Source of the DNA: an uncultured virus (IMG/VR IMGVR_UViG_3300047322_000261)
Taxonomy: Duplodnaviria; Heunggongvirae; Uroviricota; Caudoviricetes
Length of the DNA stretch: 64,000 nt
IMG/VR virus record: IMGVR_UViG_3300047322_000261
Reading direction: 5' to 3' (one strand)
Part shown: positions 15,901-36,107 of the stretch, piece by piece
Numbering within the stretch: position 1 is the first letter of the stretch
Layout: each line of letters begins with the position of its first letter
The notes under the pieces: model-generated
What the model was told of the DNA's origin: nothing
The model's input: the letters and a program-made list of their open reading frames with translations, nothing else
Databases searched by the model: none
Translations under genes and position numbers: made by a program

Positions 15901-18900
15901 TTGAAGGACGTAACCATATTCAAGCCGAGACTGCTTGGCAGGCTGGAGACGGTAAAAATCACGACTACTTCAGGAGACTACCTAACATAGATCAGGGTTT
16001 TGTTACAGACGAAGGAAGGTTCGTTAGCAGGCAAGATGGGGCACCAATAGCTAAGGCTTCTGGACAACTAAAGAACAACCAATGGCGAAGCTTATACGAC
16101 AAGAACCCATCAATGCAGTTAATCTCAGAAGACGTTAACTTCATGCCTAGGATGGGTGTCCCGGTTAACGAAGAAAAATGGAGGGAAATGTTCTCTCGAT
16201 CTAATGCTCATGGATACCCTAAACCTATAGTTTCGGCAGCTATACTAGACCTTAAAGACGGAACCAAGTGGGTTGGTAAAGATCATGTTGAAGCCTACAC
16301 AAGTTGGGGGGCGGGACAAGACCACACTAAGCCATTAAATAACTCAACATTACTAGACGGATTTATTGACACTAACGGTGACTTCCTTAACAGGAAACAG
16401 GCAGGAGTTAGGGTTGGAGAAACCGGACAAATGGGGCCAGAGGCCTCTAGGATTCTAGCTCAAACAGGACTAGACTCACAGACGTTTGAGGGTCTTAGAA
16501 GCTACATGCCTAGGTCTAAAGAAACAGACCTTGCTGAACACGCTGCGAAATTATCAGATGGTAAGATTATCACAGGTTCTAGCCAAGGCGAAGTTTATGG
16601 CAAACTAAGGAACCAAGGCCTAGACCCTGATAGCATAGAAACAGGGTTTGTTGACGGAAGCGGAAAGTTCTTAAACACCGGAGAAGCATACCATCAGGCT
16701 ATAACATCTGGACAGGGTGCTATGTCATTCATGCCTAGGGTTGATAAACAGTGGGAGAAGGAGCGGTGGCTTACCAGAAAGAACATAGCTATGCTAATGG
16801 GCTGGCCTAGGGAAGATGGTCTTAAGAAATTCGCGGAGTTATCACCAAATCAACAAAAGCAGATAGCCGGATATTACGGGCCTAAGCCCGGAACCAGAGA
16901 AGACACATTCTTCATGCCGAAGCCGGACGATAAAAGAGCTATCAAGGAAGCAGCAATCCAATATCCAGATGGAACCATATACGCAGGAACCAATCATGCT
17001 AGCGCAATTATTAACTCAGAAAATAAAGTGGGAGAGTTTAAGGTAGGGTTTGTTACTAACGACAGGAAGTTTTTAGATAGAAAGCAAGCTATGGACAGGG
17101 CTGTAGAGATTGGCCAGATTTCCAAGGCAGCGGCAGACACCGAGTTAAATCGGCAAATTAGAATGGGTATTAGCGAACCAAGCAGGGGTCTTGAGTCATG
17201 GATGTTTAACCTAGACAGAAATTTCATGCCCAAAGCTCCCGCTGCATGGAAAGTAAAAGATTGGGAAGATAACGGTAAACCTAAGTCTCTTATTGTGGCT
17301 CCAGCTACATCAACAATTTACGACACAGGGTTAAACGAACACAGGGATGTTAGGGCTGCTATTAGAGACTCTGGAGTAACCGGAAGCCTAGTTAGGGCTG
17401 TTGTTAATGACCGAGACAACAAATTGAACGTAGAGCCTTATTCTGCATCAGGAGAAGTCTCGGCGTCTGACATGAAAAACCTGAACGATCTAGCTACCGA
17501 GATGGGGCTAGATGGTGCAGTTAACACAGAGTTTAAGAGAGCGGGTGGGCCTTCTAGGATTCAGCAGGCTAGGAGCTATGCCTATATGCCACCTATCCGC
17601 AAGGCAGAAGCTCGCGGTAACTCACGAGAAGTAAGTCAGGAAGAATACGATCACCTAGCAGCCTCAGGTGCTACACAGCTTAACCAGCTTAGGCAAGACA
17701 CCCAGTCAACGGAAGGCATGAAACAGAACTGGAACGACATGCTTAACCAAGTCTACGCAGAGACTAGGAAGCCGTGGGGTGGTGCTACCATTAATCCTGC
17801 TACTGGAAGGGATATCAAACTAACATCAGGTAGGGACGTTGGGCCTTTTGCTATGTCGGTTAAGGATGAAGGTCAGGAGACCATTAGTGTTCCCATTGAT
17901 GCTTCGCAGCGCGAATTTAATGATGCCATGTTAAAGGCTAGGCATGCCTTTCCACAGCTTAACGGTAAAGACCACTATCTAGGGGTGTTCCGCGACGACG
18001 ACAAGGGCACTATAGATATAGACCCTGTGTTAGTGGTAGATACTCCATCGCAGGTTGAAAGGATAGGTGCTTATACTCATGCTTCTGGTGGAGCGTATGA
18101 CTACGCTACTGGTAACGGTTACTTCCCGCCGCACCTAGACTACATGCCTAGAAGTAGAGCTGACCTGAGAAAGTTTCAGGAAGAAATGGCACAGAATTAT
18201 CCAGAAGCTATTAAGCCTACCTTCCAGAAAGACAAAGAAGGTAACTTCAAGGTAGACAAAGACACTGGTGAGTTTGTTCCAGAAGAAAGGGAGTATAACC
18301 TAGACAAAACCCCCTTATACAAACTAGCAACTCAAGGTATTAAAGACCCGCTAGAGAAAGACAAAGCTTATGTCAAGGCCTTAGCTCAAAAGATAGCTAA
18401 CGAATATAAGCAGAATTGGAAAAACGATCCGCTAGCTATGACAGCTAAGGGATGGTATACGGACTTGTTTAAGTTGATTTCAGACAAACTAGGAAAAGAC
18501 AACGCTGAGTTATTCGCTCAGTTACTTTCCACAACAAGTCCCGGTAACTTTGCCTCTAACAACTTTAGGTTCGCGCTAGAGGCTATGAATGGATACCTTA
18601 GTGGGAGATACGATAACATCCTTAAGGCGTTTAAGGAAGCTCACGATGCTTTTGTTAGGGGTGATCTAAAAGACGCTAGCGGTAATCCGATTACCAAGGT
18701 TGGTCAGTTCAATAAATACATAAGAGATAACAACATCTTGGCGTTACAAGCTAGCGGAAAGAAACTCGGAAAATATAGCCTAGGAGCAACGTATGTCCTA
18801 GCCGGACATTTCTGGAACAAGGCAATGGGGAAAAAGGTTACAGCCTTTGTTAAGAACATCAGCGGTGTAGACCTAGATAATCCAACTATTGATACTTGGG

Positions 18901-19262
18901 CAGCTAGAACGGCTCATAGGTTGTCTAACGAGGGCATGACCGATAAGCCTTGGAGAAACCTTCCAATGAACGAATCTGCTATAGGTGACAGAGATTTCGA
19001 CCTAGCGCAAGCCGCCTACAAGGAAGCAGCCAATATGACAGGAGTTAAACCAACAGACTTACAAGCTATAGCTTGGTTTGGCGAGAAACTTCACTATGGA
19101 AAGAGCGGTTGGATCAACTCTGGCCCCGGAGCCGAGCTAGGAGACTTTAGACCATTCCTAAAGGCGGCTACACCTAAAGGAAGCCTAGGGGAACTAGAGA
19201 TACCAAGTGGATTAAAGCTTCCAAGAGCAACACTAAGCAAACCAAAATGGCTAAACCAATAA
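9963..19262 (+). CDS. Giant (3099 aa) internal virion polyvalent-type protein: HEXXH metallopeptidase, 14 MP[RK]-delimited modules, C-terminal HhH-glycosylase-like domain
   Basis: HEYTH at 11814-11828; repeated [FYL]MP[RKP] junctions; internally repeated domains; C-terminal GWY...LLSTTSP...TIDTWAAR...LQAIAW pattern. Confidence 0.75.
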   Translation: MPTANLADIEQDNTPPPYLAGPQDQPQQQPADPSIPPLLARPETPANSASLDDATIDHDTLQADATNNLAKYNAGDPSINDHDAGMFKGIAKAATDYKTALNNEITAADNTPGWLRAGRDLIGGVKTLAGKASNFLSLGGKPEDWAEFGDVPKSTQDLKEAATGAAEIAQGVVTGVGKMPAVAANLVAGLNELTPYQALRETIPGPWQDEAQKQAAESRAVGDVLEHYANTGASDISRITGVSHDTAKAMIGENVAYMLLGPMGMEGTAEGVANGVRNATNAVGNVTGGLKWAAAKAAPTAVGLAKAATVDVALRKVGLVGGMNELVSTLAGFGGRSGAKNPEIANKVVQLFSDKTLPEITEAAAQQATKPLGLSKNQFFADALKQKAGTLQEAIDADLADMDSTSARRATDLASDGSYKHPYEDLDKEGQSLRDKKQQVQDLQNKAQGILARNDFQKLYDSAIQGFGNFMAHTAQGAAIGAGFAGANAPTGDTSNAVASGLAIGGILGAGAAPFASLSGTRALRISDAAKDLKNWSIKNNAVAGDMSDLSAGQKRTAYSVAGMVNKLGGNKVYLHPEDEMVAWGGQAPDSQPGSGFVDSQGNIHLNKADLPSGVAGHEYTHFTQQFQGLLGEMLSKASPDRMADFEKQYQDALATTGKTRFNSRKERDAEVGRLVLQHTPIELFYGGETGADVLGRMWDGMMGQGKTKFINGFNAPYTRADILAMKQRFYKAGELAKMTDGQIPRDAKPPEVSFTDFTDAQAEKFHRAVEFNQQQGMSPDAAFKDVADNIEFMPKPRPGQTKEEALDEAWERYYAQVQEQNAKREPQEQDFNTRPPKPKWYDPTSFVDDARMRSLLPSEQRPKLEPYVPKPKPFERTYGWMSPEGKYIENKSGNIHANTIAKELNGQDSFRRWRENVIHKGGDETIKNHPYIDAMEWAYRKGWEKGYVRLLNSGKTLYANIGKDFVISPEMKDHLIKRAEESGADRVMVDRDFSKTEKLWDNPDYAGNKAGSAYFGERPEPTHRRLARLLNWHRDQDVLTPHVGQPAKRATIPPEFRAVDRDEFHGTVHETVKAATGRLADAITGRGVNEVRTFTEHLRRQGKPVKKVSDMTPEEIRAELAARDAWNAREGWRGKPAQAPEQRAESYMPRKPGQSKQDAAQEAWERYYNVVQQQNQAAEAGQKMPSPLAITRRQKKLERATEAERVAAEAQRIKDRAEAVARVKAKAKDSGKPQPVYGWLKPDNSFLENKSSDIHADTISKELNPDYKYDQWDHKDEQGRYTDGDYTSIYGSMRGAYEAGWDKGYIRLRNSYDTLYAHLPVKYGPIPESKVNVLKELALENNMNEIIHDNGTSNSYTMWSNPNPVKDTSDYMPRIKSPAIQDKKTGKIYLGENHAVAYNDYLRATPDDKVVSSGRFVPHWDNPRTKEGFIDTDGNFHDRANAWQMAADAGQLTPSSVSRKTKTLFSEDLMPRLTKRQMEAQDKATRDYDFIQAQNMARDEEKKMPTKLSYVRRKNRLERADQAERDAENQRAEQARLDALSRRRFGQGNDRPREVYGWLSPKGEFHKNKGGDIHADTISRLLDPQGYEDSEGSYHDMYGGMTQAYMEGWRNKYLRLTSLGRQMYVHYPAEYGDIPKSQLGELEKIAMEHNMDVVLRDTEDGPEKVLWQSPEFGTRDDGLTSEYEFMPKARQMNDENFKEPFYVEKHGGVYAVVDRRKPSSVGFISPDLKEAQHRAYWANETERPKTSASGLWDSTFVEGEGAAERKQVAKQLGVQEDKHYWEQKPEARAKIKDYYTKQGADFMPRPTPLQVAEGVHRELKKSAEEFIGASPYARKFLDNDKDGMGRYYLMHALVDSVKGKPQGIDLQEIHKSLGMTPTEVEVFADGFRQTVNPAEIEHRINIGSLPAAPYPYDMNPKFEAQMRDTADQTPEDTAGEEWKSGNPPPGWNPREGGSGFWPREFMPRIRAAAVRDNDTGNVFEGRNHIQAETAWQAGDGKNHDYFRRLPNIDQGFVTDEGRFVSRQDGAPIAKASGQLKNNQWRSLYDKNPSMQLISEDVNFMPRMGVPVNEEKWREMFSRSNAHGYPKPIVSAAILDLKDGTKWVGKDHVEAYTSWGAGQDHTKPLNNSTLLDGFIDTNGDFLNRKQAGVRVGETGQMGPEASRILAQTGLDSQTFEGLRSYMPRSKETDLAEHAAKLSDGKIITGSSQGEVYGKLRNQGLDPDSIETGFVDGSGKFLNTGEAYHQAITSGQGAMSFMPRVDKQWEKERWLTRKNIAMLMGWPREDGLKKFAELSPNQQKQIAGYYGPKPGTREDTFFMPKPDDKRAIKEAAIQYPDGTIYAGTNHASAIINSENKVGEFKVGFVTNDRKFLDRKQAMDRAVEIGQISKAAADTELNRQIRMGISEPSRGLESWMFNLDRNFMPKAPAAWKVKDWEDNGKPKSLIVAPATSTIYDTGLNEHRDVRAAIRDSGVTGSLVRAVVNDRDNKLNVEPYSASGEVSASDMKNLNDLATEMGLDGAVNTEFKRAGGPSRIQQARSYAYMPPIRKAEARGNSREVSQEEYDHLAASGATQLNQLRQDTQSTEGMKQNWNDMLNQVYAETRKPWGGATINPATGRDIKLTSGRDVGPFAMSVKDEGQETISVPIDASQREFNDAMLKARHAFPQLNGKDHYLGVFRDDDKGTIDIDPVLVVDTPSQVERIGAYTHASGGAYDYATGNGYFPPHLDYMPRSRADLRKFQEEMAQNYPEAIKPTFQKDKEGNFKVDKDTGEFVPEEREYNLDKTPLYKLATQGIKDPLEKDKAYVKALAQKIANEYKQNWKNDPLAMTAKGWYTDLFKLISDKLGKDNAELFAQLLSTTSPGNFASNNFRFALEAMNGYLSGRYDNILKAFKEAHDAFVRGDLKDASGNPITKVGQFNKYIRDNNILALQASGKKLGKYSLGATYVLAGHFWNKAMGKKVTAFVKNISGVDLDNPTIDTWAARTAHRLSNEGMTDKPWRNLPMNESAIGDRDFDLAQAAYKEAANMTGVKPTDLQAIAWFGEKLHYGKSGWINSGPGAELGDFRPFLKAATPKGSLGELEIPSGLKLPRATLSKPKWLNQ

Positions 19263-19417
19263 CACTAATCACGGTAGAAGACCTAGGGCTAACACAAAAA
19301 CAAATAAACCAGTTTGTTAAGGGAGCTAGGATAGCTTACGGTCAAGACCCGCTAGCTAGCGAGAAGCCAACACCTTCTGTTCCTGAGCCATTTACACCGT
19401 CACTTCCAAAGAGGTAA
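19247..19417 (+). CDS. 56-aa ORF overlapping the stop of the giant gene (not in ORF track)
   Basis: ATG 19247, MAKPITLITVEDLGLTQKQINQFVKGARIAYG...PKR, TAA 19415-17; fills the gap to the next gene. Confidence 0.55.
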   Translation: MAKPITLITVEDLGLTQKQINQFVKGARIAYGQDPLASEKPTPSVPEPFTPSLPKR

Positions 19418-23333: not shown

Positions 23334-24080
23334 ACCTAGAAATCCACCCAGTAGCTCTAGCTAAGCTAGGGCTACTTAGCAGGCAGCAGGCTAGAAGGCT
23401 TCTAATGCTAGGCGGATGGTTTAACGCACTAGAAATGGAAGAATTACTTATCGAGGCAGGCTGTATAGACAGCCATGAGTGCTGGACGCCCTACAGGACG
23501 CTATCTAGCTCGCCGTGGTTAGTATACGAGGAAACAACACAATGACGAAGGCAATCTGGAGCGAGCGCATGACAACTAAACAACTAGCACAGCTAGAAGC
23601 TATAGCCACCACCATTAAGACCAGCGAGCTATGTAAACGTGTAACAAACATAGAGAACAACCTGCTGGAGTTAACTAAGCTGGTTAAGATCATAGCATTA
23701 AACCAAACCCGCCGCGAGGCACGACGATACATACCAGAAGGATTTTAATGAAAGTCGGAACCGTATGAGACCAATCCCTAACACCTTAACAATCGGTCAT
23801 CCTCACGTATGGCCTAAGCTAGCCCCTAGGCTGGCGAAATACCTAGAACCTAAACTTGGTAAACCTTATGTTACAACTTCAAGATCGGAACGAGCCACAC
23901 GCAGTCCCTCACACTCTAGTCCTACAGCGGCTAGATGAGTGCCTGTTAAACCTTAAGATTCACCGGAACGACTATCCGGCTGAGTTACTTCCTGTATACT
24001 GGGATGCCTTGAGCTATACCAGAACACTAAGGGAGAGAATGGCAGAAAACTTGGGAGAACCTAGGAGCGGTGGGGTATGA
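23330..24080 (+). CDS. Run of three or four small hypothetical ORFs (about 23330..23545, 23542..23748, 23856..24080)
   Basis: Mostly ATGA-coupled short ORFs; no recognisable domains. Confidence 0.45.
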
Positions 24081-24505
24081 AGATAAAACAATTCAGTGGC
24101 AAGTATCGGTTCCTGTCTAACTTTAAGCCTGTAGAAGTAGAGCTAAATGGGATTCATTATGCGTCTGTGGAACACGGTTATCAAGCACTTAAGGCTACCA
24201 ACGTAGAAGATCATAACATGGTAGCCAGCCAACCAACCGCAGGACTAGCTAAGAAAGCTGGCAGGTCTATTAAGGTAAGACCAGACTGGGACAGCATAAA
24301 ACTTTCCGTGATGGAGAAGCTAGTAAGGTCTAAATTCCGATGGTCTGTTATGGCTGATATGCTATTAGACACTGGAACCGCTGAGTTAATCGAGGGCAAT
24401 AACTGGAATGATACGTATTGGGGTGTATGCCGAGGGGTTGGCGAAAACCACCTTGGAAAGATTCTAATGAAAGTCAGAAGACTTCTATACCTAGGAGAGT
24501 TATGA
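24077..24505 (+). CDS. NADAR (YbiA-like) family protein
   Basis: FLSNF...SVEHGYQA.K...AKKAGR...RPDWD...KF...LLDTG..ELIEGN.WND.YWG...GENHLGKILM. Confidence 0.92.
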   Translation: MKIKQFSGKYRFLSNFKPVEVELNGIHYASVEHGYQALKATNVEDHNMVASQPTAGLAKKAGRSIKVRPDWDSIKLSVMEKLVRSKFRWSVMADMLLDTGTAELIEGNNWNDTYWGVCRGVGENHLGKILMKVRRLLYLGEL

Positions 24506-24690: not shown

Positions 24691-24755
24691 AGGTAAGCCT
24701 TGTTACAACAATACCTTAACCGCTAGCTAGCCTAACGCCAGAATGGAGACTCGAC

Positions 24756-24926
24756 ATGAAACATACTAAAAATTCCCTACCCCTATGCCCATACCACGGC
24801 AACGACTATAAGCCTAGGACTTGCGGAGTCTGCGAGAAGATCGTCAGCGATGCCTTCATAGCCAGATACCACCCCAAGGCAAGTGTAAAAATCCTACCCC
24901 CCCCAGCCAGCCAGCTAGCTAGCTAG
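24756..24926 (+). CDS. 56-aa ORF with CxxH...CxxC (possible Zn finger)
   Basis: GGAGA upstream; CPYH...CGVC. Confidence 0.45.
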   Translation: MKHTKNSLPLCPYHGNDYKPRTCGVCEKIVSDAFIARYHPKASVKILPPPASQLAS

Positions 24927-25166
24927 GGACTCCCATGACGATCAGCGACATAATTCTATACCTGCTAGTCTTAGTAGTGATTTTTTCCCCACCCCTACCC
25001 CCCTCTAACCTACCTAGGATATAGACTTCCATGTGTGGGCATTTTCGGCCCGGCAATTCGATGTAACTACTGCGGGGGTATGGGGGTAAGTAGTTGCTAG
25101 CCAGCATGTTACGAGGTTGGCACGCTAGTTGCTTACATTGAAATGTGTTAGCACTTACCATGCCAA

Positions 25167-25604
25167 CTAGCTAGCTAGCCTAGCTAGCCTAGCTAGCCTG
25201 TGCTTGTGTGTCTGTGCTGCTGTCATGTATCGGTTGATCCACTTATAGCAGCTAGTCATCTCTTGCTTGTGTGACTTGATAGCAATGGTTATGGCCTCTT
25301 GTTGTGTCGCGGAGCCTGTTACTGCTAGCTCTAGCTTCGGCGTATCACCAACCCATGTTACAACCCACTTAGTAGCCTTAGCTGGCTTAGCTGGCTTACC
25401 AGAGTAACTCTGATACCATCTATCAAAGGCGTCTCTCTGCCAAACTTGATCGCTAGCTATACTGTCGTGAGCTAGCTGGCTAGCTTGCATAGCTTGTGTT
25501 ACTTGCGCTGCTGTTAGTGGCTGGTAGTTAGGTAATGGGTTAGCGTGCCTGTATACCCTCATATCACTAGCTAGTCTGTCTTGTCTGTTACTTGTGTTAG
25601 GCAT
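25167..25604 (-). CDS. Early paralogue family member
   Basis: KWVVTWVGDTPKL...ATQQEAI...WINRYM. Confidence 0.6.
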   Translation of the reverse strand: MPNTSNRQDRLASDMRVYRHANPLPNYQPLTAAQVTQAMQASQLAHDSIASDQVWQRDAFDRWYQSYSGKPAKPAKATKWVVTWVGDTPKLELAVTGSATQQEAITIAIKSHKQEMTSCYKWINRYMTAAQTHKHRLARLARLAS

Positions 25605-25643
25605 GTTATGTTATTAGTTAGTTGTTACAACTTGATTTTGGCC

Positions 25644-26041
25644 TTATGAAGCCCCTAGCTGCTCTCTTACGTCATGCTTGTAGCCTAGCCTGCTAGCTAG
25701 CTTACCAGCAGGCTCAAGCACTTGCTTAAGCTGGCTTGCTAGCTCTGCTGCCCACGCTGGCGTCAACCCTATGCTTATATTGCCATGTATAATGATTATT
25801 ACTGCTCCGTTGTTCTTCTCTACTGTTATCATTGGTTGTCTTTCTGTTGTCGCAGGCTTACCAATTTGATCGGAGTTACTTCCTTGGTTGTAACCTTTAC
25901 AATCTTGTCGATATTCACGCCTTTGTATCCAGACTTAATAAGACTCTTGGCTAGTCTTTGAGACCTAGCAAGACTTTCGAATGTTGAGTAGATGTATTGG
26001 TAACTGACTTGGTATGTTGTTGTTTTTTCTGTGTCTTTCAT
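25644..26041 (-). CDS. Two small hypothetical ORFs (25644..25832, 25829..26041)
   Basis: ATGA-coupled; AGAAAGGAAA RBS before 26041. Confidence 0.5.
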
Positions 26042-26060
26042 TTGATTTCCTTTCTTGGTG

Positions 26061-26306
26061 TTACTTTGTTGTCTTTTTGGTTCGTGGTTTTGGCATTGTG
26101 GCCTCTAGCTCGGCTAACTTAACCAACCAATCTTTGTTTGCTTGTATAGCTTCTAGGTTCTGGTTAATCTCCATGTAGCTGGCTCTCGTTGACCGAACGC
26201 AGTAGCTTTTGTGATAGTCCATAGCTTGTCGCTGAGTTTTAAAGCCACCGAAGGTTGTCTTATGGAAGCAAGCCTTACCTTGTTCATTTCTTACGTTCCA
26301 AGTCAT
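26061..26306 (-). CDS. Early paralogue family member (divergent)
   Basis: TWNVRNEQGK...GFKTQRQAM...EINQNL. Confidence 0.55.
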   Translation of the reverse strand: MTWNVRNEQGKACFHKTTFGGFKTQRQAMDYHKSYCVRSTRASYMEINQNLEAIQANKDWLVKLAELEATMPKPRTKKTTK

Positions 26307-26599
26307 AACACTCTCGCGATCTGTTCTGTGGGCATGACTACGATCTGCCAGCCAGCGTCCATAGCCTTAATTTTAGCCTCGGCTTTCTTGACATCCTGAA
26401 GACTACCCATTAGGTAGTTAATATCGTTCAGGTATGACCTAGCCCTACGCTTGGCCGCTTTAACAGCCCAAGCCTTAGCTTCCTGTCTGGTATCTTTCAC
26501 GCCTGCGTCCAGATATCTATAAGACGTTGAAGGCACTTGCTCAAACCTTGGTTGTTCCCCTGACTTGTATCTAACTATCCATCTGTTGCTCAATTTCAT
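26303..26599 (-). CDS. Early paralogue family member
   Basis: RWIVRYKSGEQPRF...DTRQEAK...NDINYLM. Confidence 0.65.
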   Translation of the reverse strand: MKLSNRWIVRYKSGEQPRFEQVPSTSYRYLDAGVKDTRQEAKAWAVKAAKRRARSYLNDINYLMGSLQDVKKAEAKIKAMDAGWQIVVMPTEQIARVL

Positions 26600-26964
26600 A
26601 ATTCCTTCTCTAGCTTGTCTAGCTTGGCTAGCATTTTGCGTTGGCGTTCTATTGCGCTAAGCATGTCGTTTATTTCCTTATAGTCTTCGGCAATATTGGC
26701 CTTGGTATCCCTACGGAAAACATCTATTGCCTCTTGTTTAGTTTCTAAGCCATAACTCGCGGGCACTAACTTAGGCGCACCATCAGGCACGCAGGAGATC
26801 ACCCAATTGTCTAACTTTATACAATTGCCTAACTTGGGTGGATTATCACCAACTTCGTGTGACCAAGGGTTAGTATTGAGACTGTTAACGTTAGCATTGA
26901 GCCTGTTAACTATATCATCCCAATAGTCGTCTTCGTCTCTTATGAGTGGTATTCTAGCTGGCAT
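26596..26964 (-). CDS. Early paralogue family member
   Basis: NWVISCVPDGAPKL...ETKQEAI...KEINDML. Confidence 0.65.
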   Translation of the reverse strand: MPARIPLIRDEDDYWDDIVNRLNANVNSLNTNPWSHEVGDNPPKLGNCIKLDNWVISCVPDGAPKLVPASYGLETKQEAIDVFRRDTKANIAEDYKEINDMLSAIERQRKMLAKLDKLEKEL

Positions 26965-27286
26965 CTTGTTCCCCTTTCTTATAAGCCACTAACGCCTTAG
27001 CTGCCTTGCTTAGTTGCTTGGTATACATTTCGATTGTCTTCATGTATGAGTTAATGTTCTTTCGGGTCTTTACCAAGAAATTCTGAACAGCTTCATCAGG
27101 TGTTGGGAATAGGTTGTCCGGCAGGAAAGTCTGACCACGAAAAACGTGATCTCCCGCACCTTTCTGGTAGTCATCAATCAGCCACCACCATTCATCCTCG
27201 CTATTCCCGTCTCTGTGTGCCGTGACCTTAATAATCTTGTCATAGCCGGACAATAGAAACATTGTTTTTTGTGATTTGTCTAACAT
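26954..27286 (-). CDS. Early paralogue family member
   Basis: LFPTPDEAVQNFLVKTRKNINSYM. Confidence 0.65.
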   Translation of the reverse strand: MLDKSQKTMFLLSGYDKIIKVTAHRDGNSEDEWWWLIDDYQKGAGDHVFRGQTFLPDNLFPTPDEAVQNFLVKTRKNINSYMKTIEMYTKQLSKAAKALVAYKKGEQDAS

Positions 27287-27752
27287 TAGTGAGTGTTGGA
27301 TGTTAATTGTTTAACTGGTTCCCAATCTGGAATACCACACATGCTTTCCTTTTGGGCCAGTAGGTCTTTCAACGCTTCCTGTTCAATGGCTAGGAAGTCG
27401 AAGGCGTCTGCATAATCGCGCTTAGCCTGCTCAAAGGCTAGCTTAGCTTCTGACATAGCCTTGCGTGAGAACCTGATTTCCTCGTATGTGTTATACAACT
27501 CTCTGTCAAGCTGAGCTAGTGTTGTTGGCTTTTCTCTCATTGTCATTGTCCACCTTCCGTTTCCCATTGATCTTCCCATTGAGGAATTGCATCCTCTGTA
27601 TTGTAAAACTTAACGTAGGCCTTGGGTGTCTCCACTGGTAGTTGGCTATGCAGCCAGCGATCTTGAGCGTTACACTCGGCCAGCCTGCGCTGTAGCTTGC
27701 TAATCTCCGCGTTGTTTTCGTCGATCAGTTTTAATAATTGGTCTCTATCCAT
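27286..27752 (-). CDS. Two small coiled-coil hypothetical ORFs (27286..27546, 27543..27752)
   Basis: Translationally coupled ORFs. Confidence 0.5.
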
Positions 27753-28084
27753 GATTTGTAATCTCCGTTGTTGATTTTGTATTTCCGGCTTGGTTTTTCT
27801 AGGTCTAGCCTAGCTATCCAAATGGAAGCTTCCTTACCATCGAGATTAATACGGTGTTCATCATAACATCCTCGTTCAATCCTGCGTATACCTGCTAGTG
27901 TTATGTCATTGACTTCCTGTAGCTCTATCACGATGCTTCCCTTGCCCTTGCGTATCTCTGGACAGAACAAACAGTAAAGATCGTAGCCATTAATGCGATA
28001 GGTTCCTAGCACCTTCTGTTCGCCAAACCTACCGTAGTTAATAAGACCTTCTCGGAGCGTTCCGTAAACCGCTATGTAATTCAT
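27731..28084 (-). CDS. Gamma-glutamylcyclotransferase (GGCT/AIG2-like)
   Basis: YIAVYGTLR.G..N...IE...YD...I..GD; ATG at 28084. Confidence 0.85.
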   Translation of the reverse strand: MNYIAVYGTLREGLINYGRFGEQKVLGTYRINGYDLYCLFCPEIRKGKGSIVIELQEVNDITLAGIRRIERGCYDEHRINLDGKEASIWIARLDLEKPSRKYKINNGDYKSWIETNY

Positions 28085-28383
28085 TTGTATCCCTTTGGTA
28101 TCTGCATTTCTTGAACAGCAGCTATCTGCCACCTGGTCTCCTGTAATTCGTTCATGTAGCTATTGATTTTACTTAGTTGATCTCGGATTTCCGCGCGGCA
28201 ACTGTTATTGAACATTTCAATAGCTTCCTTGGGAGTGGCCGCTCCATACCTGCTACTATAAAACTCAGGCTTAGGCCCGTAAGAAAAAGTAATCTGCCAG
28301 CATAGAGCTTCAAAGGTATTATAGCCACGCTCTTTGCGCCGCTTAATCCATTCATCTACTTCGATCTCATATTTCGTTTTCAT
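28081..28383 (-). CDS. Early paralogue family member
   Basis: CWQITFSYGPKPEF...ATPKEAI...KINSYM. Confidence 0.65.
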   Translation of the reverse strand: MKTKYEIEVDEWIKRRKERGYNTFEALCWQITFSYGPKPEFYSSRYGAATPKEAIEMFNNSCRAEIRDQLSKINSYMNELQETRWQIAAVQEMQIPKGYK

Positions 28384-28975
28384 TTATAATTCGTCCCTTT
28401 TTATCGGTTAGGGTGTTGGCATCCGGCATGGCAACAGATTCAACATCCGTTATAGCTTGCTGGCTGTTCTTAATCCTTTCCAAGAATCTGTTCATTTCCC
28501 TAAGAAACTGCGTTCGTTCTTGCTTGAGAGCATTTAGGACGATCCCCTTGGCTTGCTCTGGTGTAGAATCGCTGTAGTAGTCACGGACAAACACAAATCT
28601 ATTATTCATATCTCTTGTCATTGCCCAGTGATTGCCATGTAGCAACCTTTTCTCGCGATCAGATTCGACCTTTTTGCGCTCAGCTTCAGCACTTACCACC
28701 CATTCTCTGTATTCGCGTTCCTCTCGTTGTTCGCGGGTTTCTGTTCCACCATCAGGCCTAACGATAGAACCGTCTTCGTTGAAGCGCATTATCTCCCTTC
28801 TGGAGCCTATATTTGTAGCCCTGCTACTGCGCCATGTCGTTCCGTCTGGTCGTCTGGTGTAAGTGTCTTCGTATAGATTTCCGTCAATAGGGCTTCGACC
28901 TGTTATTATGATAGGTGGCAGCGTTGTATCGTTTAGGACTTCCTCTACAATGTTATTATTAGTTGGACTTGGCAT
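28367..28975 (-). CDS. Early paralogue family member with long N-terminal extension
   Basis: HWAMT...DSTPEQAK...EMNRFL. Confidence 0.6.
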   Translation of the reverse strand: MPSPTNNNIVEEVLNDTTLPPIIITGRSPIDGNLYEDTYTRRPDGTTWRSSRATNIGSRREIMRFNEDGSIVRPDGGTETREQREEREYREWVVSAEAERKKVESDREKRLLHGNHWAMTRDMNNRFVFVRDYYSDSTPEQAKGIVLNALKQERTQFLREMNRFLERIKNSQQAITDVESVAMPDANTLTDKKGRIINENEI

Positions 28976-29279
28976 TGTGTTCCCTTCTGATGACTTTTAT
29001 TTTGTCTATGTTCCTCATGTGACCTTCAAGGTCTTGAAGATCATCTAGGTAGCGATTGATTCGCTGGCGGGTTTTAATAGCAAAGTCACGAATAGCTAGC
29101 TTAGGCGTTTTGAACAATTCTTCATCATCGAAGAAATATCCATGATAGTATGGCCCTTGTTCCCCTTCGGCAATCCATCCGTCATTCCTGTTGCTGTATC
29201 TACTAACGGTAAGCTCTCTAACTACCGGATTGTCGCCAGTGTCGTAACCAACAATAAATAAATTCACGGTTTTAGTCAT
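28959..29279 (-). CDS. Early paralogue family member
   Basis: GDNPVV...LFKTPKLAIRDFAIKTRQRINRYL; ACGGAGAA RBS. Confidence 0.65.
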   Translation of the reverse strand: MTKTVNLFIVGYDTGDNPVVRELTVSRYSNRNDGWIAEGEQGPYYHGYFFDDEELFKTPKLAIRDFAIKTRQRINRYLDDLQDLEGHMRNIDKIKVIRREHNAKSN

Positions 29280-29448
29280 ATTAGCTTGGTTTCTCCGTTG
29301 TGTTTGTAGGTGGTGCGCTCATTAGCGTAAACGCCAACATCGCGCCTAGGCCTAAAGTCTGCCCATCCACCGAATACATCCTTGACCATAGCGTTCTTGC
29401 GCTTCCAGTCAGCTTTCTTGGATGCGTATACTTTCTTGGGTTGCTTCA

Positions 29449-30006
29449 TTAATAATTCCCTTCTCCATCTGGAAATTCACGGCTAGGTGTCTCTGGCGTT
29501 TGCACCATATCGTCAAGAGATTCGCTTCTATCTGGCTCTGGCACAAGGTTGCTAACCATTGGCATAGGAAAAGGTGTGCTAGTCCATGATATGTTGTCAT
29601 AGGCTCTCGGTGCTACACGAGCAGCAGGTATTGGATAACTGGGGGCGGGTTGCTCCGCTGGACGATTGTGACACACAGGAGCCTCATTAAGAGCATCCAG
29701 AACCATGTTGCAAGCCTCTACGATCTCGTCTGTTACCTTATCTTCTAGCCCTATGCCCTCTAGTATGTCTTTTGCTTTATCTAGGTTCATGCTGTTTCCT
29801 TAATCGTATGCGGGTAGTATCCCAGCCTCGACTGCCTCTGCGTCGGTCATGTAGTCTTCAATCAGAATAGGCTCTGCGTTAGACAGAATCTCGGAACCGG
29901 AATTGGATTCTGAATAGCTCATTAAGATATCCTCTGCCTTTACCTTAGCTTCCTCTTTGGTATCTGCCTCTACTTCTGCCACATTTATCAATACGTTCCA
30001 TTTCAT
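29449..30006 (-). CDS. Two hypothetical ORFs (29449..29790, 29800..30006)
   Basis: AAGGA RBS before each; second has VEADTKEEA motif common in small phage proteins. Confidence 0.55.
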
Positions 30007-30011
30007 GTTTT

Positions 30012-30296
30012 TTATCCTTGGTTGAATGTCTGATTACCGATCTTCAATTCGGTTACTGTGTTAAGGTTCACCATGCGGTAGCCTTGGCTATCCGCAGACC
30101 ACACTGGCAGCAGGCCTTTGGTAGCCGGATTGAACGACATACCTTTGCCTGTCAGATTGCGCTGCATGCCAAGACGCGCACGCATGGTTCGCGGTGTTCC
30201 ATCTTTCTTGATGAAACTGATGGTGAACAAATGGCCTTTCTCGCCTTTGTTTGGCTGCGTGGTTGCGATTAATGCGTTGAGTTTTTCGATGTTCAT
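30012..30296 (-). CDS. SH3/Sm-like small phage protein (WYL_2/DUF2693-like)
   Basis: FTISFIKKDGTPRTMRARLG...VW.....GYRMVNL. Confidence 0.7.
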   Translation of the reverse strand: MNIEKLNALIATTQPNKGEKGHLFTISFIKKDGTPRTMRARLGMQRNLTGKGMSFNPATKGLLPVWSADSQGYRMVNLNTVTELKIGNQTFNQG

Positions 30297-30550
30297 AATT
30301 TCTTAGCTATCCCTTCCAGTTGTTTAATATCCTTAATCACTTCGCTCATGTTGTTAGAGCTTCGGATAATATCATTCTGCCAGTATTGGAGCATCCTTGT
30401 GGAGTCTTTCATGGCACACTTTAATGCCTCTTTTTTGGTGTCAAACCCATAGCTGGCATATCCCCTAGCTCGGATGGTTTTGATATACAGCTTTCCGGCT
30501 TTGTTGCGATCTTGGTAATAGGTTACACGGACTTTTTTCGGGTTTCTCAT
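30293..30550 (-). CDS. Early paralogue family member (divergent)
   Basis: GFDTKKEALK...QNDII. Confidence 0.55.
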   Translation of the reverse strand: MRNPKKVRVTYYQDRNKAGKLYIKTIRARGYASYGFDTKKEALKCAMKDSTRMLQYWQNDIIRSSNNMSEVIKDIKQLEGIAKKL

Positions 30551-32369
30551 TTTGCCTCTCTGTTAACTGTGTTGTATTTCCTAGCCTTGTTGCGCTTAGC
30601 GTTAGCTCGACCGTCTATGAACGGCACACCATCCACAAACGGTTCTAGGCCGCTCTGTGCGCTATCCAGCACTAGCTTAGCCTGCCACACAGGAACGTCC
30701 AGAACGTCAGCCATAGCCTGTAGCGTTGAGTTTCGTGTTATCATAACCCCGTTGTGATTTCTTTGATTTCTTGGAGTTTATTCTCGGCTACCACCGCTCG
30801 GTGCATCCAGTATATACGAGAGGCATCTAGCTTCCGCATTGCTTCCTGTCGAATCTGCTCATCTTCGTATGTTTTGTCTTGTTTCATTTTGCTAGCTCGG
30901 TTAATCCAGTATATACGAGAGGCATCTAGCTCCAGTGAGTATGTTGTGTTTTTTTTCATTTTGCTCCTATTAGGATTTGTTTCTCTGACTGTCGTTGCTG
31001 TCTTTCGATTTCTTTGTTGTGGCGATACATCATGATTTCCTCGATGACTACTTCCGGTTTGAGGCTAACCACCGCTCGCCAGAACGTGATGTAGTTAATG
31101 TCTGGAATGACCTTTCTGAGCGTCTGGAAGGCTCCCTGTTTCGTTTCGTTGTAGTCAAGCCATAGCTTGTAGTCCAACGGTGCATTGGAAAGCCTAGAGG
31201 CTTCCTGATAGGCTTCGTAGCCCTTCCTTGCGTTCATGTAAGTTTTCCAGAACATTACCAAAGCCGCCATTTCGATCTTGTTAAGCTGTAGTCGCTTCAT
31301 CGTGTTCTCCGTGTGATCTGTGAGCGGTTCCAGTTACCTATGCCACCAGTTGAGTTGTTAAGCTGGTCTACCATTGCCGAAGCGGCACACTCATGCCAGA
31401 AGCTATGATACTTTACTCCGGTCTTAGTGAAGACCGTATAGACATAAGAACCAGTGTTGGTGATTCGCTTTTTTTCATACCATGCCCTAGGCGCACGCTC
31501 GATCTCTACCGACTTAATTACTGCGCCAGCTTCGTTCTTGCGTGGCACAAGATTAATTGTCAGATTGATTGTAAGTCTTTTTGTCATTTACTTTCCTTGG
31601 TTGAACGCTACAACCCTAGCCCTAGCTGTGGCTGACGTTGTGTTTTCTCTGTCGAGTTTATTCATGGTTGCACCGAATGTTGACCACTTGTAAGAACGGC
31701 TTACTCGGCACGTTCCACGCTGCATCCAGTTAGCCTTGCAGGTCGAAACCTTGTCACGGCCCGCTGTTCCGCTGCCTTTTCGCTGGTGGCGAGCTTTCTT
31801 GGCTCCACGAATACCGCACCCTTTGGTTGGGAATGATGGTTTGGTTGTTTTCATTGTTTATCTGTCTCCTACGTTAGCTGGCATGTTGTCACACATACCA
31901 GAGTTAATTACCAATTTGGTTATCTGTGTTCGCAAGTTATTAAGCTTGGCTTTCATAACTCTATCAACAAGGTTCTTGGCTCTGCGATAGGTTGGGACTT
32001 CCGCATAGAAGCCAGTGTTTTTGTTATACACCGTAAAGCCATGCTCAAAATCGTCTTCGTAGCCGATAATCTCATGCCCACGGTAAATTACTGCCTCATA
32101 CATTAGTCGCACTCCCCTTCCCGTTTCAGGAACGCTCTCTCCGTTCCAGTATTAACCGCATCCTGCCATGTTTGCTTGCGAGCATAGCTGCCACGCATCT
32201 GTGAGTTTTTCCAGTTTTGCCAGCGAGCGCGACGACGCTTCCAGACCCTCTGCGTTGGAGTCAGGTTGGCGTCTGTGGCGTTTTTATTGGTGAAGCCTAC
32301 TGGGAGAGCCAGCGGCAACTCCAAGAACGATCTGTGGCCTTTTAGAGTGATTGTTGGTTTGAATTTCAT
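30547..32369 (-). CDS. Run of about seven small hypothetical early ORFs (30547..30744, 30741..30959, 30956..31300, 31297..31587, 31588..31854, 31858..~32103, 32103..32369)
   Basis: Tightly coupled ORFs, many basic; no recognisable domains. Confidence 0.55.
30805..30931. repeat. 28-bp perfect direct repeat (period 99 bp) inside ORF 30741..30959
   Basis: ATCCAGTATATACGAGAGGCATCTAGCT at 30805 and 30904; encodes LDASRIYW twice. Confidence 0.9.
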
Positions 32370-32970: not shown

Positions 32971-33028
32971 CACCTGTAACTTAGACGGTATACGACGATA
33001 AGCAATGATTTTGTGCAATTCATAAAAC

Positions 33029-33063
33029 TGACCAAGGGGTAAGGAATTTCCCTACCCCTGTCA
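33029..33063 (-). terminator. Stem-loop after the GATase gene
   Basis: Minus strand TGAC-AGGGGTAGGG-AAATT-CCTTACCCCT-TG-GTCA-GTTTT; G-U pairing favours the minus strand. Confidence 0.6.
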
Positions 33064-33077
33064 CCTTTTATACGCAT

Positions 33078-34265
33078 CTAGCACGCAGGAGCATTGTGCC
33101 GATTGTTCAGCAACGGCATCGCTATGATTTTGCCGCTCGGCTGAGTAATTGAAGCAATGATTGGCTTCTCTCCTGCCTTTGTTTTACTAAGGTCACGAAA
33201 CTCTCTCGCCTTCGCTTCCTGTTGTTTCAGCCAGAACGCAACGTGCCTCTCTTGCTCTGTCTCTGGCGCAAACTCAAGATCACCCTCTAGCTCGGCCAGT
33301 GTTCGCGCTTCGCCAGCAGCAGCGATTTCTTCATCTGTTGGCTCGCGTTCTGAATCGTCTGCGGTGTAGCTGCCAGTAAACGCCGCGTTAAAGGCCGCGT
33401 CTGCCGCTTCGTTCTCGTCTTCATCGGTAAGAACACGTGGAGTGCCAGTTGTAATCCAGCGGTTGTTGCAGTCGTAGTAGCCCTGCGGCTCGTAGTCACG
33501 CACCTTAACCCAATCACCAACATAATCATAGTAACCGATGCTGCGATGAAGGGACGAATACACTGGGTTGGACGCTGTGCCAAAGCCGCGATAGGTTGGG
33601 CTAGCTAGGCTATTCCACATGTTACTAACAGAGCCTTGTGCGCCTTTCCAAGCACGTTTGATTGGGCCGTAGGCGTAACCTGAGTTACTATACCAAACAC
33701 CCTTATTCCACGTTCCCTTTTGCTCATTGAATAACCAGACCTTGCCGTTGACGTTCATTAAGGCGATCTTGTTATAGCCGATAGCTTCACCGACTACCTT
33801 GCCGAATCCCTCATGCCCAAACGGAACCATTTCCAGTAAAGGCTCTAGCAGCTTAGCAAACTGTTTTGAATCAGATTCGTTTTTGTCATCCTTGTGAAGT
33901 GAGCTAGGCAGTATACCATTGTGAACCAACGCATACTTGCCATTGCTAACGTCAAACGGGTGGCAGTTGTCAGCATTAACAACTCCGTGAGTAGCTATCC
34001 TGAAATGTAACAAGGCAGCATACTTTTGTAGGCCTTGATAGGCTTTCCAGAAGTCGTCGAAGCTAAAGAATCCTTTGTGAATCTCGATCTTACCATCCTT
34101 AGCGATAGCAAAACCAGCACCCTCTTTGTTGTTAGCGTAACAGTTTTGAAGGTATTTCCTTGCGATATTGACGCCTTTTGGTTTCCATACCGCGATACAA
34201 CCTAGCATGGGAAGCAACTGCCAACAGGTGCTAACCCAGTCTATGATTTGAATTAAGTGTGTCAT
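33078..34265 (-). CDS. Class II (Ntn) glutamine amidotransferase with a 22-aa N-terminal leader
   Basis: CIAVWKP...N.EGAG...HFRIATHG...NCHPF...HNG...SDS...WYSN. Confidence 0.88.
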   Translation of the reverse strand: MTHLIQIIDWVSTCWQLLPMLGCIAVWKPKGVNIARKYLQNCYANNKEGAGFAIAKDGKIEIHKGFFSFDDFWKAYQGLQKYAALLHFRIATHGVVNADNCHPFDVSNGKYALVHNGILPSSLHKDDKNESDSKQFAKLLEPLLEMVPFGHEGFGKVVGEAIGYNKIALMNVNGKVWLFNEQKGTWNKGVWYSNSGYAYGPIKRAWKGAQGSVSNMWNSLASPTYRGFGTASNPVYSSLHRSIGYYDYVGDWVKVRDYEPQGYYDCNNRWITTGTPRVLTDEDENEAADAAFNAAFTGSYTADDSEREPTDEEIAAAGEARTLAELEGDLEFAPETEQERHVAFWLKQQEAKAREFRDLSKTKAGEKPIIASITQPSGKIIAMPLLNNRHNAPAC

Positions 34266-34275
34266 GTTTTTCTTT

Positions 34276-35121
34276 CTAGTTAATTACCGCTGGATGAATG
34301 TAGTCCATATACGTTCTTCCGTGAACATCATTAAACGGTTCTTTACCATTCTCGATGATATAATCAAAGGCCTTAGCTGTGCAGGACTGCCTGTATGGTG
34401 ATGTTTGGCTAGGTGCTGAGTTAGCCTCTAGGACGTATGGATTACCGTTTGCGTCTACCATAACATCGACACCGCAGAAGTCTGCCCCGCCAACCTTAGC
34501 AGCTTTAATGGCAGCTTTGATTACCTTAATGGGCCAAAGATTCCATCGAACGTTGGCAAACTTTCCACCACGAGCAACGTTCCAAGCTACTTCATCTGGA
34601 TTAGCCGGTGTCTTGCTAGCTACCCATACTACCCGATTCTGGCATACGAACACTCGATACTCAGCTACCTTGGCAACCTTAACAGCTATGTAACCGTCGC
34701 CAAAGTTATCCAGTAACCAATGCTTACAGGCCGAAAAACTACCTACAAACAGGTTCCTTCCCTGTGAGTGAGTAGGTGGCCTAGCTATCCAGTGGTTGTT
34801 ACGATACTCATGCGGAACAGTGTCACCGCAAACTAGAGTGAATGGAACGGGAACACCAGCAGCTTGCATATCTAGCCTGCTCTGTTTTTTGTTCCCGCAC
34901 CAGTGTATAGCCTTAGCTGCGTTAACAACCTTGGCATGGATAGGAATGTTGGAAGTGCAACCCCATCTAAATACTAATGGTGTATCGTCATCGGTGGTTA
35001 CACTCTCCCAGTCACCCCTAATCCAGTTTCTAACCTGAGCTATCTGCTTTGTAGCAGCAGCTATGATTCCGTCTGCGCTTGCCTTACCAAGTGCGCGTCG
35101 TCTAAAGATAATTGCTTTCAT
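34276..35121 (-). CDS. ATP-grasp ligase (RimK-like)
   Basis: NKKQS...EYRVFV...DFCGVDV...YVLEANSAP. Confidence 0.88.
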   Translation of the reverse strand: MKAIIFRRRALGKASADGIIAAATKQIAQVRNWIRGDWESVTTDDDTPLVFRWGCTSNIPIHAKVVNAAKAIHWCGNKKQSRLDMQAAGVPVPFTLVCGDTVPHEYRNNHWIARPPTHSQGRNLFVGSFSACKHWLLDNFGDGYIAVKVAKVAEYRVFVCQNRVVWVASKTPANPDEVAWNVARGGKFANVRWNLWPIKVIKAAIKAAKVGGADFCGVDVMVDANGNPYVLEANSAPSQTSPYRQSCTAKAFDYIIENGKEPFNDVHGRTYMDYIHPAVIN

Positions 35122-36107
35122 TATTCCTCGAATGTTAGTCCAAACTCGTTCTTAGCTGAGCAGTTTTTGAACGGCTTCCATCCAACCTGCTCTGATAGGT
35201 CAGTAGCCTTACCAAACCAGCGGCACATGATGAATGACATAAGGTGCGGCCATTTGTCGCTATGCTTAACAAAGCGCATGAATCCTGCCCGACTAATAGC
35301 TTGGCTTAGCGTAACATCTTCCTGAGAGCAGAAGTCCAACAAGGCATCGACAAACTCAATGTTCTTGTAGACTGACTCTTTCTTTAGCGTTCCCTTGAAC
35401 ATGCGAAACTCAATCGTTTCCTGATTGCACAGGTTGATAGCTTCGTGTCGCTCGCTAGTCAAGGCGGCAGTCTCAGGGTCTTTCGCTTTATACTTAGTAT
35501 AGCTGTTGTCTTTGCGGCCAGACATAACATAAACGAATTTCTTGTTAGCTTGGCTGTTAATAAAGCATACTGCCTTAGCTATAATACCCTCTGTTAGAAC
35601 GTCGCGGCTAACGTGAACGTGCATACCGCAACGATCACTGTTCCACGAGATAAGACCATTGGGGCGTTTTGTCAGGAATTTCTCCCAAATGATATACTGT
35701 TTTTCTTTCAGATATGGTCTTGTTACGATCTCGATTCCGTTCTGTAGGGAACCATCACGTTTCATTATCACGGCATCACCCATGAGATCGTCAATTTCAC
35801 GAAGCTTTGCCTGAACGTTCTTCTCGGAAGGGTCTTTTACTTCGGTCTCTAGCTCGACGCCGAAATACCGCTTTCCCTTCTCGATCTTGCTAGTGTCTAC
35901 TCTTGTGCTGTATTCTGCTAGCTGTGGATTCTCGCGGAAGCATGGACGACATTGGTCGTTCCTCATGTGGTTTCGCAACATAAACTCCCCGCAGAACGGG
36001 CAGTAACGATAGCGAAGCGCGCATGAAATGCACCGCTCTGTGTCTAGGTATCTGTTAGCGTCGTCGCCCTCAGACACTAGGACTACATCGCACTCAATAC
36101 AATTCAT
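35121..36107 (-). CDS. Putative amidoligase (COOH-NH2 ligase type) with N-terminal Cys-rich region
   Basis: FGVELE...KRDGSL..GIEIVT...CGMHVHVS...AINL...TIEFRMFKGT. Confidence 0.88.
   Translation of the reverse strand: MNCIECDVVLVSEGDDANRYLDTERCISCALRYRYCPFCGEFMLRNHMRNDQCRPCFRENPQLAEYSTRVDTSKIEKGKRYFGVELETEVKDPSEKNVQAKLREIDDLMGDAVIMKRDGSLQNGIEIVTRPYLKEKQYIIWEKFLTKRPNGLISWNSDRCGMHVHVSRDVLTEGIIAKAVCFINSQANKKFVYVMSGRKDNSYTKYKAKDPETAALTSERHEAINLCNQETIEFRMFKGTLKKESVYKNIEFVDALLDFCSQEDVTLSQAISRAGFMRFVKHSDKWPHLMSFIMCRWFGKATDLSEQVGWKPFKNCSAKNEFGLTFEE

Follow-up and report, generated by a model that had tools for sequence, protein, structure and literature searches.

Introduction

Tandem arrays of small, diverged paralogues are a familiar phenomenon in the accessory ('hyperplastic') regions of phage genomes, where short orphan genes of one phage-only, fast-evolving family form translationally coupled strings, whereas T7 gp5.9, probably the closest functional analogue of the genes discussed here, is a single-copy gene. 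Published work on gp5.9 presents it as an inhibitor of RecBCD and MukBEF, a coiled-coil DNA mimic that blocks RecBCD by binding to it (PMC9836394). The subject of this work is an array of nine small genes on the minus strand of an uncultured tailed phage (Caudoviricetes; IMG/VR record IMGVR_UViG_3300047322_000261), at positions 25167-30550 of a 64,000-nucleotide stretch that was analysed as a whole and is called the window below. How does this array compare with gp5.9? The same work describes gp5.9 as a very small accessory protein that forms a dimer with one long helix per chain, in which a short N-terminal beta element braces the coiled coil, and which acts purely through binding of a host protein (PMC9836394). 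These features invite comparison with the nine gene products, which share a module modelled as a beta-hairpin followed by one long helix. There are also differences. The coiled coil of gp5.9 is parallel, whereas the shared module is predicted to pair in antiparallel fashion. The isoelectric point (pI) of gp5.9, an extremely acidic protein, is given as 4.0 (PMC9836394), whereas the nine proteins span 4.9 to 10.0, with only two of the nine below 6. Kinship was considered and rejected, the profile alignment by hhalign giving 1.1% over 16 columns.

A family of nine paralogues

The sequence-only reading of the window had proposed about nine small paralogues with a common motif, a shared upstream hairpin and differing N-termini, and the coordinates and motifs that it quoted for the nine minus-strand open reading frames (ORFs) are all present. 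What do these ORFs have in common? They end in a module of about 70 residues with the pattern W-x-[VI]..P.[LF]..YG..T..EA..K..R.IN..M..L. The four W-x-[VI] strings quoted for the hairpin are in place and AlphaFold2 models a hairpin there, and between 0 and 110 residues precede the module. Hidden Markov model (HMM) searches, leave-one-out profiles and hhalign together give nine members (each named below by its first coordinate).

The search set inside the window consisted of all 359 six-frame ORFs of at least 40 residues. When 22 consecutive minus-strand ORFs were compared with one another by blastp, the top non-self matches all fell between the named genes (25167/26596, E 5e-9; 26596/28081, 3e-7; 26596/26061, 1e-5; 26954/28959, 6e-8). 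A phmmer search seeded with 26596 retrieved 25167, 28081 and 26061 from the 359 ORFs; the iterated HMM added 26303, 30293 and 28367 and then converged at seven, with no other ORF at E<=10. With the HMMER filters off, the next matches of this seven-member profile were 26954 (E 0.0054) and 28959 (E 0.12), followed by the best unrelated ORF at E 1.1. Leave-one-out profiles regained nine of nine left-out members at E 2.9e-13 to 0.0025 (best non-members, E 0.0083-0.94), the tests for 26954 and 28959 not being independent, as each is the other's closest paralogue. Do these two belong to the family? An hhalign comparison of the seven cores with the 26954/28959 branch, joined by three orthologues from a related contig (L001, see below), gave 94.7% and E 5.6e-8 over 61 columns and settles the point: both are members. 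In the stretch from the T..EA cap to the IN motif, the two branch members are shorter than the others by one heptad, exactly seven residues. A tenth copy was sought among the 359 ORFs with the nine-member profile and none was found, the best other ORF standing at E 0.57. The 68-residue ORF 29800-30006 (-), which lies between members, starts MKWNV and contains 'DTKEEAK', but it is without the IN helix and reaches only E about 3 against the family profile; for these reasons it is not counted, and it may be a decayed or truncated relative.

The nine genes, all on the minus strand, differ considerably in length. At the distal end, 25167-25604, the last gene of the minus-strand arm, encodes 145 residues, with a 72-residue N-terminal extension that starts MP and the module at about 73-145 (phmmer from 26596, E 1.6e-7). 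Two members consist of the module alone: 26061-26306 (81 residues; phmmer E 2.9e-4, iterated profile E 2.6e-30), which has a close relative, P0005, in another metagenome, and 26303-26599 (98 residues; E 5.3e-6 in round 1 of the iterated profile), in which the hairpin loop is longer. The seed of the profile searches, 26596-26964, encodes 122 residues, is acidic (pI 4.9), starts MP and carries the module at 47-122. The heptad-lacking, divergent branch comprises 26954-27286 (110 residues) and 28959-29279 (106 residues), the latter ranked as the second-best non-member by the seven-member profile. Between them lie 28081-28383 (100 residues; phmmer E 2.6e-6), the top match of the family profile, and 28367-28975, the longest at 202 residues, whose 110-residue extension starts MP and contains an LNDTTLPP motif ahead of a module at about 111-186 (E 9.1e-4 in the first round of the iterated profile and 6.7e-28 in the second). 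The array begins with 30293-30550, a basic protein of 85 residues with a 4-residue insertion just before the conserved N (round 1 E 2.8e-4; leave-one-out E 0.0025).

Could unrelated small ORFs resemble one another by chance, through a widespread helix-cap motif, T-x-x-E-A? Taken alone, the T..EA cap is indeed common, a caution already given in the sequence-only reading, and the pairwise identity of some members is as low as 13-19%. The probability of this explanation is nevertheless practically negligible. The profile statistics within the window and the hhalign result of 94.7% argue against it, 36 independent metagenomic homologues keep the spacing of W, YG, T..EA and IN..M, and a profile built from the window alone finds nine matches in the syntenic array of L001. 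Together these results refute chance resemblance. The profile alignments are significant, where non-significance had been named as the outcome that would speak against a family. Across the window's nine, T, A and N (T75, A79 and N99 in 26596 numbering) are invariant; W (W54) is replaced or unaligned in 30293, 26954 and 28959.

A second array and the age of the paralogues

Are the nine copies a recent local expansion? A scan of metagenomes with one alignment (A5) returned nothing, and a second scan, with the homologue P0045 as query, led to L001, a 6726-base metagenome contig that represents the same region of a related phage. The window-only nine-gene profile matches nine L001 ORFs at E<=0.0023, on one strand and in the window's gene order, so the copy-number comparison suggested in the sequence-only reading gives nine in the relative too. 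Set between the family members, L001 also has recognisable orthologues of the non-family genes 29449, 29276 and 27286, and the convergent junction at the end of the array is the same. Syntenic orthologues include L001 3898-4323 for 25167 and 1408-1707 for 28081; for the L001 member at 2832-3209 the window offers no clear one-to-one counterpart. A 69-residue gene inside the window array, 27543-27752 (-), has its orthologue at L001 5547-5735 (-) on the opposite, convergent arm (57% identity by blastp, 63% by global alignment), a sign of local rearrangement.

In the family tree, the window paralogues are scattered, each with its nearest relatives elsewhere. By the Shimodaira-Hasegawa-like approximate likelihood ratio test (SH-aLRT), 28367 groups with five outside sequences (P0045, P0011, P0017, P0021 and P0027; support 90), 25167 with P0025 (92) and 26303 with P0033, which is L001 2236-2559 and its nearest relative (91); apart from this the tree has little resolution, 25 of 43 inner branches being open. 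As the paralogues group with outside sequences, the duplications predate the split of the phages, each copy having been kept since. Syntenic family orthologues share 21-34% identity in global alignments (8 pairs). Gene order and tree together show the nine genes to be anciently duplicated paralogues that have been maintained individually.

Distribution and searches for known relatives

How widespread is the family? An exhaustive profile search of 1.84 billion cluster representatives returned 46 proteins at E<=0.001. Seven of them come from the window itself, 36 are other metagenomic proteins and two are close relatives of 26061 and 26596, both on one 1645-base contig; the remaining match, P0038, was rejected as a repeat artefact. 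All 46 are 74-226 residues long, the module stands at the C-terminal end in the 45 real ones, and no fusion to any other domain was seen among the 46 matches in this search, which covers proteins of all lengths. Ten clusters that were looked up have 1-3 members each, from JGI, ENA and Logan assemblies. The family is rare and its distribution narrow.

Known relatives were sought by sequence and by structure. No Pfam family is matched by more than two of the 45 members (best E 0.0025, below every cut-off) and no PHROG by more than one of the 45 (best E 6.4e-4). A profile search of PDB sequences reached E 0.29 at best, with TolC and other coiled coils. Foldseek searches of the core model against PDB and BFVD gave nothing at E<=0.001, and the wide VIA-align search with the same model gave single long helices only (Z<=4.9); the full-length model of 25167 likewise had no significant match in Foldseek or VIA-align. 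In the ESM Atlas the best feature score was 0.76, under its chance level, and the structure rows, obtained with a poor model, reached TM (template modelling score)<=0.56. IMG/VR scans with 26596, the glutamine amidotransferase, an alignment of the 202-residue subfamily and an alignment of a 57-residue neighbour confirmed no relative. A scan of GTDB genomes with alignment A5 gave no match and therefore offers no clue to a prophage or host. A broad literature search on phage paralogue families found nothing relevant, a result that cannot show the family to be unpublished. On these searches, the family is uncatalogued, restricted to phages and new to the catalogues consulted.

Fold of the module and a predicted dimer

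In the 45-sequence alignment (residue numbering of 26596), the conserved positions run through the whole module. They are W54, [VI]56, an aromatic residue at 58, G62, P64, [LF]66, Y71, G72, T75, A79, [IL]84, K88, L95, R96, I98, N99, M102, [LI]105, [IL]112, L115 and L118. W is found in 42 of 44 sequences, T in 41 of 45, A in 43 of 45 and N in 44 of 45. Position 88 is K in 28 and R in 5 of the 45, and position 96 is R in 23 and K in 6. From the nine-paralogue alignment, AlphaFold2 models the core as a beta-hairpin (strands 7-12 and 18-23) followed by a single 46-residue helix (30-75), with a mean predicted local distance difference test (pLDDT) of 95.5 and a predicted template modelling score (pTM) of 0.68. 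The full-length model of 25167, made with 19 homologues, has a disordered stretch (1-31), a first helix (32-67; pLDDT 75-78), the hairpin (79-94) and the long helix (101-144; pLDDT about 98). The relative orientation of the two helices is of low confidence in this monomer model (pTM 0.48).

Is the module a monomer? All three prediction runs for a homodimer of the 26596 module scored 0.65, and the best of the three controls reached 0.00; the runs agreed in at least 97% of contacts, with a partner pLDDT of at least 88. The pass mark for such a dimer is reached by 20 of 30 solved pairs and one of 23 solved single chains, and it is a rough guide here, where the family's own alignment was used. The lowest-error contacts (112-87, 98-98, 119-80 and 115-64) describe an antiparallel dimer centred on residue 98, and the module is accordingly predicted to form an antiparallel homodimer. 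Nine of the 15 most conserved positions fall in the predicted interface. The other six are W54, Y71, G72, T75, A79 and N99, of which the first five probably make up the hairpin-helix core and the helix cap. The coiled coil of the sequence-only reading is thereby borne out as far as one long helix is modelled, its pairing being a prediction. That reading had also divided each protein into a docking module and a variable part. The division holds, with a common module and N-terminal parts that differ in length, charge and sequence; as to docking, the evidence points to a self-associating, dimeric scaffold and not necessarily to a surface for a shared host partner.

The fold recalls two described proteins. 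In the N-terminal domain of HicB (UPF0150), the motif 'G.T.eEA' follows a hairpin, and the family shares with it the sequence of a beta-hairpin and then a helix that opens with a T-x-x-E-A-like cap. The idea of a relationship was rejected: aligned by hhalign with E. coli HicB, the 45-sequence family profile reached 0.3% (the template being a single sequence, a very remote kinship is possible), none of the 45 members matches the HicB Pfam family even at E<=10, and the module is modelled with only two strands and one long helix, unlike HicB. The other is prefoldin beta, whose order of elements is that of 25167. Foldseek comparison with the 25167 model gave E 6.2-6.6, TM 0.22-0.31 and a root-mean-square deviation of 18-21 A, the helix orientation in the model being of low confidence. 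Prefoldin is not in the VIA-align list, no member of the family matches Pfam prefoldin, and four of the nine members are without the N-terminal helix, unlike prefoldin beta.

The variable parts

If the module is constant, what varies? Besides the N-terminal extension, the charge differs widely among the nine: four are basic (pI 9.8-10.0), two acidic (4.9 and 5.6) and two near neutral (6.8 and 7.9). Among the outside homologues the median pI is 8.8. Within the helix, column entropy exceeds 3 bits at many of the positions that separate the conserved ones. A start with MP and then polar residues is the tendency among extended members, and it is seen in 29 of the 36 outside homologues and three of the nine window members; among window members with an extension of at least 35 residues the fraction is three of five, against eight of the 111 among all window ORFs (a 3099-residue ORF included). 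A subset of members has in common the helix start '[LM][TS]AS[QE][IVL]'. A further short motif, [IL][FL]NDT[TS]xP, occurs in five members (28367, at residues 15-21, P0017, P0027, P0024 and P0016), and its position varies from N-terminal to mid-chain to the C-terminal tail. It looks like a portable, mobile linear motif, and the tails that carry it are presumably flexible.

The DNA of the window has a peculiarity that reaches into the proteins. The palindrome GCTAGC occurs 67 times, against 22.4 +/- 4.6 expected, and builds up (GCTA)n-like runs where genes end and in the gaps between them, with clusters at 19351-19360, 24722-24731, 24914-24923, 25170-25197, 25692-25701, 38832-38841 and 59874-59886. 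Where such a run is in frame, it encodes a C-terminal tail of the '..LAS' or 'ASQPAS' kind, both in proteins of this phage and in those of many metagenomic homologues; as these tails recur in the latter, the motif seems to be a trait of the lineage.

Genome setting and expression

The window is most of a tailed-phage genome, and its proteins lie on a contig of 77,891 bases. PHROG and Pfam scans identify a large terminase (52809-54641, -), a primase/helicase (57798-59594, -), exonucleases and a 1235-residue protein bearing Laminin_G. The same scans find a cluster of a class-II glutamine amidotransferase, a RimK-like ATP-grasp enzyme and an amidoligase (33078-36107, -). A gamma-glutamyl cyclotransferase (GGACT) gene, 27731-28132 (-; Pfam E 1.1e-9), lies inside the array and is absent from the corresponding place in L001; with the three-enzyme cluster it possibly constitutes a peptide-tagging or small-molecule system. 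On the opposite strand, about 0.7 kb from the end of the array, is a NADAR gene (24077-24505, +; Pfam E 8e-23), which has a weak match to T4 gp30.3. The 3099-residue ORF, 9963-19262 (+), matches only a C-terminal DUF7178 and two PHROGs of unknown function; its N-terminus reads 'MPTANL..DNTPPP', and a giant virion protein and an RNA polymerase-like protein are two possibilities for its nature.

How far is this phage from those in culture? Searches of isolated phages with 25000-31000 by megablast and blastn gave zero matches, as did tblastn with 26596, a 427-residue ORF and the conserved 57-residue neighbour. The best isolated-phage matches of the terminase are to Salinibacter phages only, at about 24% identity at best. 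Judged by these comparisons, the lineage stands at a great distance from every isolated phage. Four soil or rhizosphere DNA runs have contigs of near-identical sequence, with no informative variants, and one of these runs may be where the window comes from; the sequencing runs listed with this sequence are DNA only, with no RNA run.

The plus-strand arm ends at 24926 and the minus-strand arm, which converges on it, at 25167. The nine-gene array forms the distal end of the latter, within a block of short genes running from 32444 to 25167, and starts and stops overlap by 1-17 nt throughout this block, the array included. When would the array be expressed? The 9-mer TTTCCGTTG has 7 copies in the window, against 0.37 expected and a maximum of 2 in any of 100 shuffles, at 20330, 21729 and 22709 (+) and at 36867, 42675, 60690 and 62710 (-). 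All are intergenic and co-oriented with the downstream genes, which are replication genes and small plus-strand genes. A TA-rich, -10-like hexamer follows each copy after 16-19 nt, with TAnnnT in 6 of the 7 and TG just upstream in 5. In appearance these sites are sigma-70-type phage promoters of a single class, in which the conserved -35 element would be unusually long. None lies inside the array.

What could the array do?

The interpretation that we tentatively prefer, while putting it somewhat below an even chance, is that the array is a diversified repertoire of dimeric binders built on a common self-associating scaffold and directed at host or defence targets. In such a scheme two modules would pair antiparallel into a rod, with the conserved I-N of the IN..M motif at the two-fold axis and each hairpin in contact with the far end of the partner's helix. 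The module would be the constant, self-associating scaffold, and each copy would owe a binding specificity of its own to the variable helix positions and N-terminal extensions. Taken as a whole, the array would be a set of small dimeric binders or inhibitors, each for a different host or defence protein, expressed as translationally coupled genes from an accessory region of the phage. What speaks for this? Nine copies are kept in two phages at 21-34% identity and have a fold, a predicted dimer and a division into scaffold and variable parts, which suggests that each does something different and useful. The array stands in a block of small accessory genes beside the NADAR gene. Phage NADARs are reported to neutralise DarTG1 (PMC11825919), and the gene at 24077-24505 is a candidate counter to DarT-type DNA ADP-ribosylation; by guilt by association, this neighbour would fit a counter-defence neighbourhood. 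The family also appears to diverge faster than most recognisable neighbours, six non-family genes with detectable orthologues in L001 having 75, 63, 63, 49, 40 and 32% identity, in a comparison that is biased because neighbours count as orthologues only if they are still similar. Support for a role in host takeover or anti-defence is circumstantial and consists of context, divergence rate, pI diversity and narrow distribution.

Several observations weigh against this interpretation or leave it less secure. The positional neighbours 25644, 25829 and 22007 align at only 21-23%, like the family pairs, and share the low identity on which the argument from divergence draws. As for the dimer, the share of single-chain proteins that reach the pass mark may be as high as about 19 in 100, and long amphipathic helices pair easily in silico. 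Conservation is not enriched in the predicted interface: mean column entropy is 2.58 bits at its 32 positions and 2.61 bits at the 34 others (Mann-Whitney p 0.53), so it cannot be claimed that the interface is marked out by conservation. The confidently touching residues do not include N99, which 44 of 45 sequences have and which could mark a shared ligand or partner site. A strong RNA hairpin at 33019-33077 (-), located between the amidotransferase gene and the small-gene block, may be a terminator or attenuator; its G+C-rich stem has 11 bp (-30.6 kcal/mol, z -4.98) and a U-run comes after it. It stands between the array and the nearest upstream TTTCCGTTG site, 36867, which is 11.7 kb away, and more than one timing of expression is possible. 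Finally, four of the nine are strongly basic and K88 and R96 are conserved, which suits a different function.

That function would be nucleic-acid binding, by small regulators, nucleoid-type proteins or RNA-binding proteins whose rod-shaped dimer presents basic ends or a patch of K88, R96 and N99. The basic pI of four members and of the outside homologues (by their median) is in line with this, as are the three conserved polar residues, two of which, R96 and N99, would lie near the dyad in the predicted dimer; the ESM Atlas rows include MerR-type regulators, with a wing and a long dimer helix, at TM 0.47-0.48, a value under every threshold and obtained with a poor model. Two acidic and two near-neutral paralogues are, however, not what one would expect of proteins with a nucleic-acid function in common. 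Neither a helix-turn-helix, a ribbon-helix-helix nor any other DNA-binding family is detected by sequence, no significant fold match is of a DNA-binding kind, and nine different regulators in one operon would be unusual. We therefore think nucleic-acid binding unlikely. Might the proteins instead belong to the virion or its assembly, as chaperone or scaffold coiled coils or as ejected internal proteins, with the 'MP...' tail as a targeting signal? The frequency of the MP start in outside homologues and extended window members, compared with all window ORFs, would fit, and so would the prefoldin-like helix/beta-hairpin/helix order of 25167. But the array sits among small accessory genes, and neither the terminase nor the PHROG-annotated virion structural gene is next to it. 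The match to prefoldin falls well short of significance, and four members have little or no N-terminal extension. Structural proteins are, moreover, usually among the better conserved phage genes, which the identity of these orthologues does not reflect, and a virion or assembly role is distinctly unlikely.

The neighbouring enzymes suggest another possibility, that the family members are substrates or partners of the peptide-ligase-type enzymes and GGACT, their tails being tagged or trimmed. With GGACT within the array and the three-enzyme cluster 2.5 kb upstream on the same strand, the arrangement is suggestive, and the extended tails of several members could be accessible. Adjacency alone is weak evidence, however; over the stretch seen, the absence of GGACT from L001 means that the link is not conserved, and the members have no shared C-terminal acceptor motif, many tails ending in '..LAS', which derives from the GCTAGC repeat. 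This explanation strikes us as very improbable. A variant of the preferred repertoire of dimeric binders would use the interface itself for diversity. The conserved interface (I84, K88, L95, I98, M102, L105, I112, L115 and L118) is shared, and heterodimers might form too, in a bZIP-like combinatorial coiled-coil network; we regard this as improbable. If it were true, each dimer would display a pair of unlike N-terminal arms or surface faces, with which two host proteins at a time could be bridged or sequestered. The register would be set by the N99 residues that meet at the dyad, and nine genes would yield up to 45 distinct adaptors.

Implications

Most known anti-defence and host-takeover proteins came from small orphan accessory genes of phages, and most such genes lack a handle for study. 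This family has several: a fold model with high pLDDT, an antiparallel dimer geometry that can be tested, and a constant scaffold set against variable parts. The family and the phage lineage are new to the catalogues searched, the array as a phenomenon being already familiar. If the nine proteins are not binders, they are a clean example of phages expanding and keeping small gene families. If the members do have distinct host targets, the module would be a natural, minimal and evolvable binding scaffold, and the array would offer a way into an uncultured lineage of soil phages.

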